DNA of 64,000 bases from Candidatus Poribacteria bacterium (GTDB lineage: Bacteria; Poribacteria; WGA-4E; PCPOR2b), in the NCBI GenBank assembly GCA_963665285.1, contig OY762266.1:4768001-4832000 (forward strand), read 5' to 3'. The notes beneath the pieces are model-generated. The model did not search any database and had not been told where the DNA came from. It saw only the letters and a program-made list of their open reading frames with translations. Positions 28,625 to 31,600 of this stretch are shown here, one piece after another. A program made the position numbers and the translations under genes. The stretch's first letter is position 1. Each line of letters begins with the position of its first letter.

Positions 28625-31600
28625 TTGAATTTGATCGGCACAAAAATTTTCCGTCCGCCTTCCTTCTTCATCCTCGCACTCATCTTTGCCTCGTTACATC
28701 CCCCCACTGCTCACGCTGAACCTGTTCTCAAAGACGTATCGCTGACGGAATACTACATGAAACGCCGCACCCTAGCACTTGATACGGAAGAAACGGAACC
28801 CCCAACCGAACTTACCGAAGAATCGAAGGGGCAGGATTTTTGGCACACTCCAGTAGATTCGGATACAGATCCGTTGAAAACCCAACCTCCCCCGGCAGAT
28901 GATGAAGCAGAAGAACAGGACATCCGTCTAGAGATGTTGATGCCATACTACGAGTCGTTGCGCCGGTGGAAGAATCCACCTTTTCTCCTCGATCTCCGTG
29001 AACTTGATGATTTACGCGAGGGAAAACGGGAAGAGAAGGAGAAGGGCATTGCGCTCCCCCTCGAGTCTAACCTCCAGATCACGGGCCATAAATCGGTCAC
29101 AGTTGAACTACACCAAACACACTATTTTGGCGAAGGCGATATTAACCGCTACGGCGGCAGCTATGGAGGGGGTAGTTTTGGCTCCGGATTGGATCTCGGG
29201 TTGACCTCCTCCTACACCTACGATAGCTTTGGTAGCGGTTTCGGTGGAGGGTATGGCGGTGGGGGATATGGCGGCGGTTTCGGAGGCGGATATGGTGGGA
29301 GCTATGGCGGCGGATACGGCAGCGGTTTTGGAAGTGGTTCTGGCGTGCCTCGCGACACGGGGATAAATATTCGGCAAACCCTCCAAGTAGGCTTGCACGG
29401 GCGGGTCGGAGAACATACCCATGTTGAGGTTGACTATAGCGACTCCGGCGGAGGCTATGGTAGCGGTTATGGCGGTGGTTACGGCGGTTATAGCAGCGGT
29501 TATAGCGGTGGATACGGTGGTGCAAAGGAGCAGAAAATCCGCGTTTGGTATGAAGGGACGGAAACGAGTATCCTCAAAACCGTCTCTTTTGGCGACCTGA
29601 CACTGAATCTGCCCAATGCCCGCTTCCTGAACGTCAATCGCAATCTGTTTGGGCTGGAGGCAGTCGCCCAACTTGGTGGCGCAAAGTTGACGGCATTCGG
29701 CTCCCGCAGCAAAGGTATCTCTGATATACGCCGTTTCGGTGGACAATCGCGACGTGCGGCCGGTGGCAGAGGTCTCCCAATTCCCGATGCAAATTATGTT
29801 AAAGAACGTTTTTACCTTATTCAACTCGGTGAAGATGAACTCCTCCACGATTCCTACCGTCCAATTCAGCGCGGTAGCGAGGAAATCTATATCGACGATA
29901 ACGTCGCAAGCAATAATCAGGGCGGCGTGCGGACGGGGCGCGGTTACTTCAATCTCCAGCAAGCAGGCCAAGATTATAATATCAATTACGAAACGGGCGA
30001 AATCGAGTTTTTAACGCGAATTTCTGCCAGCTACGAGATTGTCGTCGCTTATGAATATCTCGGCGAGGGCGGTGGTACGGTTGGAAACCCGGGGAATGTC
30101 TTTGAGGACGATAACGGCGACGGTACGGTCGATGAAGAGGGTGAGGAAATCGGCTATGTTACTATCAAAAAGAAAAGCCTGCGAGGGACGGAATCGCGGC
30201 GCGTGTATAGCCTCGGCAACCGGAATATTAGCCCACGGGATTATCGAATAACCATTCTGCGTCAGGGGAGTGGCGAATCATTCGATACAGGGAGCGAAGA
30301 AATTCCGTATATTCAGATCTTTGGGCTGGATCAAAATGGAGATGGTATCGTTGATCCGGAGTTTATCGACTTTGACCGAGGCATCCTGACGTTTCCTGAT
30401 TTGCGTCCCTTCGTCATCGACGATCCCACAAGCCCTTACTACCAATTTCGCGAACGGTTGAACAACGAAGCAATCTACCACGAAAACCCAAGGACGACCG
30501 ATGCAGCTTACACAATCATTGTAGATTATTCTTTTCAATCGGAGACGTATAACGTTGGGCTGTTTGTTATTCCAAACAGCGAGAAAGTGAGACTCAATGG
30601 ACAACTGCTGCAGCGCGATGTTGATTATACAATGATCTATGAGGTAGGAAGCATTCGCTTTTTTACTGAGCTTGATGAGTTCGACGAAATCGTGGTTGAA
30701 TTTGAGAGAACACCATTCGGTGGATCACTGCAACAAACAGTTGCCGGACTATGGCTGGAATATTCCTATATCCCCAAACCGAAAACAGAGAAGAAAGAGC
30801 AGAAGTTGGATCGGTTTGAACGGCTTATCGGTAGGATCGATCGTCCGGAAACGGACGATTGGTCTGACACTGAGGATAGTCCCTTCGGACGAGGCTCCTC
30901 CGGCGGATTTGGCAGTCGATCTGGTGGCGGTGGATTTGGCGGCGGGCGATCTCGCGGTTTTGGGGGCGGTTTTGGTGGTGGCTCTGGCGGCGGTTTTGGC
31001 GGCTACTCAAGTTTCGGCGGTCGGTCTAGGCGAGGATTGCGTGCGGGTGGCAGCAGCTATTTCAATCCTACATTCCAAAAAGGATTTAGCTTTGCAACAG
31101 GTTACATCCTGAACACCGGACAAAAGCCGTCCCGCATCCCCGACGTCAATGGTGCGCCAAGTCGATTGCAGGCTGTCAACTTCAACACCACCTTTGGAAG
31201 GGATTTCAATTTAGCGTGGCTGTTGAACCCGTTACCATTTGTCGCGATGCGTAATTTTCCGTTGTCAATAAATTTCAGTGGGGAAACAGCGTTCTCCCAC
31301 AATAACCCAAACAGTGTTGGGCTTGCCCTGATTGATAGCATGGAAGGGGCACGAGAGGCGTCAAATACCCCTACGTTCAAACATCATTGGCGTGTGAGCA
31401 GCCTACCTGTCGCAGAAGGAGTGACCTTGGATAATCGCGCACTCTTCCGTGTGCTAGCAAGGGATCGCAACGAATCCCAAGCCGTCGGCAACTATATGCG
31501 CAATCGTGAGGTGCCTGCATCGGTGATCAATCCGCTAGCAAACTCGACGGAAGAACGTCTCATCATGGAAGTTGGTTACGATTTGACAGATATCATCGAG

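Follow-up and report, generated by a model that had tools for sequence, protein, structure and literature searches.

Three aromatic-glycine loops in a SprA/Sov-type translocon of Poribacteria and their possible role at the pore

The window analysed here is a 64,000-nucleotide stretch of a Candidatus Poribacteria bacterium genome (assembly GCA_963665285.1, contig OY762266.1, positions 4,768,001 to 4,832,000 of the forward strand); positions below are those of the window unless genome coordinates are stated. It carries a gene for a protein of 2180 residues (28625-35167, plus strand; TTG start, the exact start being uncertain) which is, by computed identity, a Poribacteria-wide outer-membrane translocon of the SprA/Sov type, the pore in the T9SS (type 9 secretion system). 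Three long, glycine-rich loops with regularly spaced tyrosine or phenylalanine residues (YG/FG tracts) stand between its barrel strands. This tract-bearing SprA translocon is real, conserved and undescribed in the literature searched: neither a SprA of Poribacteria nor a bacterial secretion pore gated by FG/YG tracts was the subject of any paper found in a collection lying mostly outside subscription journals, without supplements and without the later pangenome papers on Poribacteria. Published work is cited here from extracts of the papers concerned.

The translocon gene, its tracts and their conservation

A first-pass annotation of the window had called the gene SprA-like, and profile and fold searches bear this out. 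The product matches TIGR04189 (SprA/Sov) in five stretches with an E-value of 5.8e-47 (159.8 bits, under the 200-bit cut-off) and PF14349 (SprA_N) with 28.4 bits, over the cut-off of 27. A direct sequence search of solved structures with the protein returned no SprA; the link runs through a bridging distant homolog, which matches SprA of Flavobacterium johnsoniae with an E-value of 1e-62, and through fold searches. AlphaFold models of residues 141-1100 (mean predicted local distance difference test, pLDDT, 64) and 143-716 (mean 77) had as their top matches the four SprA structures 6H3I, 6H3J, 8GL6 and 8GL8 (Foldseek E-values of 5e-23 to 1e-12). Structural alignment, setting model positions 3-574 onto SprA 132-767, gave Z scores of 10.7-12.3, against 8.9 for the next entry, at 13-19% sequence identity. 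The root-mean-square deviation from the SprA structures is 16-28 Å because the modelled barrel is partial: of the closed, single-chain barrel of 36 strands expected for a SprA/Sov translocon, the strands modelled are b1-b11 only, and the C-terminal third of the protein is known from an amphipathic-strand scan, which finds such strands there. The models show the fold of SprA, including the cap inserts that separate strand 7 from 8 and strand 11 from 12, and the protein shares with SprA, and with Sov of Porphyromonas gingivalis, its size, its N-terminal strands, the caps after b7 and b11 and the fold of residues 143-1100. An atlas search returned SprA_N-type clusters only, and scans for related loci, one of them with a single protein, gave no result. 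A homolog with 72% identity is from Candidatus Poribacteria, and the gene is present in 61 of 61 relatives and in 149 of 151 genomes sampled throughout the phylum, with one locus in the source genome.

The three Gly/Ser-aromatic tracts reported at first pass are real and in frame within the open reading frame (ORF), with coordinates right to within 4 bases. Tract 1 (T1; 29147-29344, residues 175-240) is YG/FG-rich (50% Gly, 17% Ser, 14% Tyr, 8% Phe) and lies in the b1-b2 loop, which extends in full over about 29123-29359. Tract 2 (T2; 29444-29521, residues 274-299) is YG-rich (58% Gly, 23% Tyr) and occupies the b3-b4 loop, on the shortest modelled hairpin. Tract 3 (T3; 30884-31060, residues 754-812) is FG/RG-rich (49% Gly, 14% Arg, 12% Phe) and forms part of a longer insert (about 30764-31090) in the b8-b9 turn. 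Tyr or Phe recurs mostly at every fourth residue in T1 and T2, and the loops of this single chain hold about 36 aromatics in total. All three tracts have pLDDT values below 50 in the models and are predicted to be disordered. Short conserved motifs accompany them: a G-L-D-L-G-type motif within T1 (29183-29200), a candidate docking motif found in 66 of 79 homologs under a strict definition and in 72 under a relaxed one, and, in the T3 insert, a helix motif before the tract (68 of 86 homologs) and an F-N-P-x-F type motif after it (79 of 86). The protein contains 72 windows that qualify as tract, as against none in any of 300 shuffles, and the same filter is passed by only 2 of the 9482 six-frame ORFs of at least 100 residues in the genome, spurious frames included; a looser filter adds two further weak cases. 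The other long inserts of this SprA are acidic, which argues that the tract composition is site-specific.

In SprA, the two cap inserts between strands 7-8 and 11-12 lie at the outer end of the barrel (PMC9127263). With caps likewise after b7 and b11, the models place T1 and T2 in extracellular-side loops (b1-b2 and b3-b4) and T3 in a periplasmic turn (b8-b9). The strands concerned are b1 (29066-29113; 16 residues, model residues 6-21, in register with distal homologs), b2 and b3 (29360-29440; 16 and 8 residues), b4-b7 (29528-29740; b4 has 9 residues), b8 (30731-30769) and b9-b11 (31082-31303). The lateral opening of the barrel probably lies over b3-b6, since these are the shortest modelled strands and since, in SprA, the attachment sites of the N-terminus and of the SkpA dish are close to PorV, and a residue of cap 1 touches the bound sorting domain (PMC10994853). 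A complex prediction of residues 143-716 with one PorV-family barrel scored 0.00 and is uninformative on binding either way.

The tract loops were read in 97 close homologs by anchor extraction, the unread remainder being fragments or anchor failures. T1 is present in all 79 readable homologs (68-99 residues, 12-26 aromatics) and T3 in all 86 (74-166 residues, 8-31 aromatics). T2, readable in 79, measures 14-32 residues with 1-6 aromatics and is short (14-17 residues) in 17 of them. The tracts are lineage-wide, with this reservation for T2. Among a further 170 proteins, tracts occur in 6, all at least 49% identical to the query, and they occur in none of 135 long non-poribacterial (distal) homologs. 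In these relatives, as in SprA itself, the loops are short: the median b1-b2 span is 87 residues in poribacterial and 29 in distal proteins, and the median b3-b4 span 29 and 12 (72 of 81 and 74 of 135 proteins matched, respectively), while the b8-b9 interval is 143 residues here as against 41 in 19 of 19 distal proteins. Five b1-b2 spans of 53-97 residues among tract-less relatives may be pattern artefacts. The restriction of the tracts to Poribacteria homologs, together with the short loops of distal proteins, marks them as a poribacterial novelty. Host mimicry as their sole cause was set aside, T1 and T3 being present in the most distant of the tract-bearing homologs too.

All four glycine codons are used in T1 and T3, and three in T2. 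Degenerate DNA repeats of 12, 15, 21 and 36 bp (73-100% matches) underlie all three tracts, and orthologs differ by whole units of 3-4 residues, with indels falling in repeat units; slippage therefore does act. Between genus-level orthologs, the tracts show no less synonymous change than a folded control (of 20 loci, T1 could be cut in 19, T2 in 11, T3 in 11 and the control in 18, with one shared reference and ambiguous alignment inside the repeats). The 570 aligned Gly codons of T1 show 191 synonymous and 32 non-synonymous differences, 23 of the latter to Ser, compared with 278 and 29 in 714 control codons, and 19 of the 27 changes seen in 249 Tyr/Phe positions of T1 are Tyr-Phe swaps. Replacements in the tracts are nearly all Gly-Ser, Tyr-Phe and Phe-Leu, and in T3 also Gly-Arg. 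This pattern indicates that composition is set by selection and length by slippage. The first-pass annotation had favoured protein-level selection over slippage: the selective part stands, on varied Gly codons and the codon comparison, but slippage cannot be dismissed along with it, given the DNA repeats and unit-wise indels.

The surrounding type 9-like system

The extract of Kamke et al. 2014 describes many Por-type sorting domains in Poribacteria, structural genes that were not found and an export route left open (PMC3909097); in the corresponding extracts, Abby et al. report T9SS in Bacteroidetes only (10.1101/031039) and reviews restrict SprA-based export to the Fibrobacteres-Chlorobi-Bacteroidetes (FCB) group. 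The source genome, 99% complete, has 65 matches to the type A sorting domain TIGR04183. One of them (24.2 bits, cut-off 23) is in a glucose/sorbosone-dehydrogenase-like propeller encoded in the window (38138-39622, plus strand), a likely cargo. The PorV-family carrier profile PF19572 is matched in 61 of 61 genomes, over its cut-off in 58, and the four PorV/PorQ-family candidates tested from the source genome all exceed the NF033709 cut-off, none the PorV equivalog cut-off. Two C25 proteins resemble PorU sortases but stay just under the cut-off of 420, with scores of 411 and 353. As in the SprA/Sov systems, the genome encodes carriers of the PorV family and proteins with type A sorting domains, along with these PorU-like proteins.

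Other parts of the Bacteroidota T9SS were undetected. Profile searches of the same genome, run without a positive control, gave no match for GldL, GldM, GldN or PorP, and for GldK only sub-cut-off matches of the generic formylglycine-generating enzyme (FGE) type. No GldM match exceeds its cut-off (0 of 41), and Plug (PF17116) was matched in none of 61 and none of 5 Poribacteria genomes, again without positive controls. As judged from these profiles, the system would be a pared-down type 9-like one, with SprA, several PorV/PorQ-family carriers, PorU-like sortases and type A domains, and with no recognisable GldLM motor, GldKN ring or Plug. In F. johnsoniae the motor is required for cargo release (PMC10994853). 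Together with its PorV-family and PorU-like partners, the gene described here is likely to be the missing pore of Poribacteria, which answers the question left by Kamke et al. 2014 and extends SprA-based export beyond the FCB group, apparently without a motor.

Sorting signals in this genome may be of more than one kind. At least 84 proteins that lack an Ig-like sorting domain have at their end a short motif of the type V-x-P-x-G-K-x-x-T-x-W-G-x-L-K, and reversed sequences give 0 matches. This Trp-containing C-terminal motif is a candidate for a minimal signal in sorting or for a sortase, and also for a partner of the tracts. It is found in the window (43363-48550, minus strand) and genome-wide, and also precedes some type A domains. 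A 123-residue ORF consisting almost wholly of a type A sorting domain (genome coordinates 5887326-5887697, minus strand) is either a stand-alone domain or a remnant.

One PorU-like C25 gene lies directly upstream of a PorV/PorQ-family gene (genome coordinates 5839737-5847183, plus strand), which we take to be the gene order of Bacteroidota; the second PorU-like gene is at 4251042-4257320. Further PorV-family genes, at 4900046-4907396 (minus strand) and 4836500-4846711 (plus strand), stand beside a 2097-residue sorting-domain adhesin and near a TonB-dependent receptor, an arrangement that suggests dedicated carrier-cargo pairs.

The closest non-poribacterial relatives are SprA-like proteins of Elusimicrobiota and related candidate lineages, with about 28-40% identity over cap 1. 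They run strand for strand in register with the poribacterial protein, but are shorter (about 1650-1900 residues), have a b3-b4 span of only 10-14 residues and lack a YG/FG tract, none being found in the 34 SprA ORFs read. The PorV family is present in 5 of 5 genomes tested from these lineages and Plug is unmatched. Several PorV-family genes with a short SprA-like protein and no Plug match point to a reduced type 9-like system that is widespread beyond the FCB group. PF17116 was matched in 0 of 39 genomes found through tract-less SprA relatives and in 0 of 61 genomes from the phylum concerned, in searches that also had no positive control. The anti-correlation between tracts and Plug proposed at first pass is therefore unsupported: although Plug is undetected in Poribacteria, it is equally so in genomes with tract-less SprA, and the tracts would then not be needed for life without Plug. 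The PF17116 profile may simply not reach these lineages.

Possible function of the loops

SprA is capped on the outside and open on the periplasmic side, with a channel about 7 nm wide; PorV closes the lateral opening and Plug the periplasmic end (PMC7463736, PMC9251779, PMC12398890). Against this background, the reading favoured here, with a probability of roughly 0.4, is that the three loops act as flaps of aromatic-glycine chain, tethered and weakly cohesive, one set at each opening of the pore. T3 would hang off the rim on the periplasmic side, the binding place of Plug in Bacteroidota, and could drop into the cavity of about 7 nm. T1 and T2 would border the short hairpin of b3 and b4, which is probably the lateral exit's sill and the docking place of the carrier. 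Tyr/Phe stacking and Arg-aromatic contacts could turn the loops into a soft sieve that would retain inert periplasmic or external proteins while the carrier is absent, and that would give way to, or briefly bind, the hydrophobic surfaces which sorting domains and carrier loops present. Such flaps would provide no seal against small molecules. Plug is described as dispensable for secretion and as preventing small-molecule leak (PMC9127263); a loose mesh would not stop that leak. Confined to a cavity of assumed geometry (radius 3.5 nm, height 5-9 nm), the three loops would reach 173-311 mM aromatics and 102-183 mg/ml, so that a mesh is physically possible if all of them enter it.

The flaps would behave as a small tethered FG/YG barrier rather than as a member of the nucleoporin or PEX13 families, with which no homology is claimed. 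Like FG nucleoporins and the PEX13 YG domain, the loops are disordered chains rich in Gly, have Tyr/Phe at regular intervals and are attached to a pore of comparable width that passes folded cargo. Their phases are built from many chains, as in the PEX13 pore with its 12 YG domains and a width of 52-70 Å (PMC13733771, a preprint), whereas the poribacterial gene is single-copy, its barrel is a single chain of the SprA type with three loops, and its carriers would be membrane-bound. The PEX13-type phase is crossed by soluble receptors with WxxxF/Y motifs (PMC12173945); no soluble partitioning receptor turned up here, in work that included no search aimed at one. A true nucleoporin-like selective phase is considered unlikely. 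The same low weight is given to the fuller proposal of a motor-less and Plug-less type 9-like system gated by a genuine intramolecular YG/FG phase, into which cargo would partition through its sorting domain or the Trp-containing C-terminal motif. If true, nucleoporin-like transport would have originated a third time, and for the first time in a pore for bacterial secretion; and if the loops gate the pore at all, bacteria would, speculatively, have evolved the kind of aromatic-glycine sieve that nuclear and peroxisomal pores possess.

Among the 9482 ORFs just one other encodes a strong tract protein, and it too is a predicted export channel, an 808-residue orphan GspD secretin encoded outside the window (genome coordinates 2676793-2679219, minus strand), which on the proposal just described would be a second, independent bacterial case. 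It has FG-rich loops in three N domains, at an N-domain loop position. It is present in part of the phylum. All 7 close orthologs that were read retain the FG loops, one distant ortholog has weaker ones, and 2 of 10 loci had no frame. Low-complexity loops directed into a bacterial protein-export channel have a precedent in phage pIV, whose disordered N3 loop points into the pore (PMC8563730), but secretins differ from SprA in being 15-mers with a separate hinged gate. As a 15-mer, the FG secretin would be a closer nucleoporin analogue than SprA, and it supports a link between such tracts and protein-export channels. No paper treating secretin loops as an FG phase was found in the literature searched.

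Several observations weigh against flaps at the pore openings. No model puts the loops inside the cavity: their anchors lie in the outer b1-b4 loops and the periplasmic b8-b9 turn, and the loop paths have pLDDT values below 50. T1 and T2 could simply point outward, and the placement of the flaps draws on strand lengths and on the position of the SprA N-terminus near PorV (PMC10994853). Of the first-pass proposal that the tracts lie in or at the lumen, the part concerning T3, at the periplasmic mouth, agrees with the models, whereas T1 and T2 are extracellular-side loops whose direction relative to the cavity the models do not fix. T2 comprises just 14-17 residues in the 17 homologs mentioned above, and about 36 aromatics from one chain are few beside the 12 YG domains of the PEX13 pore (PMC13733771). 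The tract-less SprA relatives are likewise without detectable Plug. The gsp operon's secretin, which is universal, passes none of the FG filters in the source genome, and the upstream neighbours of the FG secretin, which are exported non-pore proteins, bear Arg-Gly-Phe tracts; FG/RG tracts are thus not exclusive to pores. To our knowledge there are no cultured Poribacteria. A nucleoporin-like gate is accordingly put forward as a fair hypothesis, which the loop positions support in part and of which one comparative prediction failed.

The conserved motifs within or beside the tracts (66-72 of 79 homologs for T1; 68 of 86 for the T3 helix and 79 of 86 for F-N-P-x-F) could instead belong to docking or hand-over surfaces that form no barrier, the loops and embedded motifs binding PorV-family carriers, sorting signals or periplasmic partners by avidity and replacing missing SprE or hub components. 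Potential partners abound, with four of four PorV/PorQ-family carriers over the family cut-off, 65 type A domains and at least 84 Trp-motif proteins, and sorting-domain binding in SprA is hydrophobic and plastic (PMC10994853). However, most of each tract cannot be aligned and its length changes in steps of a repeat unit, as would suit a material property more than a defined site, and the tracts occur on both faces of the membrane; a pure docking role is regarded as somewhat unlikely. Rather less likely still is a division of labour in which T1 and T2 are sticky loops displayed at the surface (for adhesion, S-layer or matrix contact, as glycosylation or cross-linking sites, or as phage decoys) and T3, unrelated to them, serves in the periplasm as a tether to the membrane or cell wall. 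The extracellular position of T1 and T2, the different composition of T3 (Arg/Phe, not Tyr), the expansion of T2 in part of the phylum only and the additional Ser/Tyr segments in cap 2 and another loop (25 of 81 homologs) would all suit it. However, it has to explain tracts that are alike, and that belong to one protein, in two different ways; the genome's other surface proteins are free of them, and T1 and T3 extend to the most distant homologs.

It also seems conceivable, though decidedly improbable, that the loops expanded almost neutrally, slippage inflating tolerated loops while selection purged only residues that block export or folding. The degenerate tandem repeats beneath all three tracts and the unit-wise indels are what such a process would leave, and close relatives cope with short loops. 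Yet aromatics are retained or swapped between Tyr and Phe, not lost, every T1 across the phylum keeping at least 12 of them. Other tolerated inserts of the same protein are acidic, and the three loops arose in one quadrant of one protein and in almost no other.

Other features of the locus

The gene begins with a probable Sec signal peptide (28625-28717), judged by eye from its hydrophobic core and Ala-x-Ala end, followed by an acidic tail ahead of the barrel (28718-29050) that would be periplasmic by analogy to F. johnsoniae SprA (PMC10994853). Cap insert 1, between b7 and b8 (29741-30730), was delimited from the models and the fold alignment and has two DxDGDG-type, putatively Ca-binding motifs (cf. 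PMC9127263). Cap insert 2, after b11 (31304-33079, the end being approximate), is placed by the TIGR04189 match and the model; it has two more motifs of this type and a minor Ser/Tyr/Arg segment near 32600. The remaining barrel strands (33080-35164), assigned by the amphipathic-strand scan, bear acidic or charged inserts that are not YG-rich, and the penultimate residue is Phe. Within this part lies a minor Ser/Tyr/Gly loop segment (33566-33622); it is segments such as these, past b11, that pass the tract filter in 25 of 81 homologs. All these features are on the plus strand.

Contigs of relatives in RNA libraries (4 runs from 4 studies) cover much of the gene; they are silent on transcription, strand and level, and are not taken as evidence. 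The neighbourhood is uninformative, with hisB upstream and a convergent ASPIC/UnbV gene downstream, and with different neighbours in other genera. At its 3' end the SprA gene shares 47 bases (35121-35167) with the 3' end of the ASPIC/UnbV (FG-GAP) gene, and the pair is kept within the genus. A transposase-like ORF was recognised by eye elsewhere in the window (15531-16328, minus strand). Deep-branching poribacterial SprA homologs bear LysM domains (PF01476), which suggests a built-in peptidoglycan anchor.

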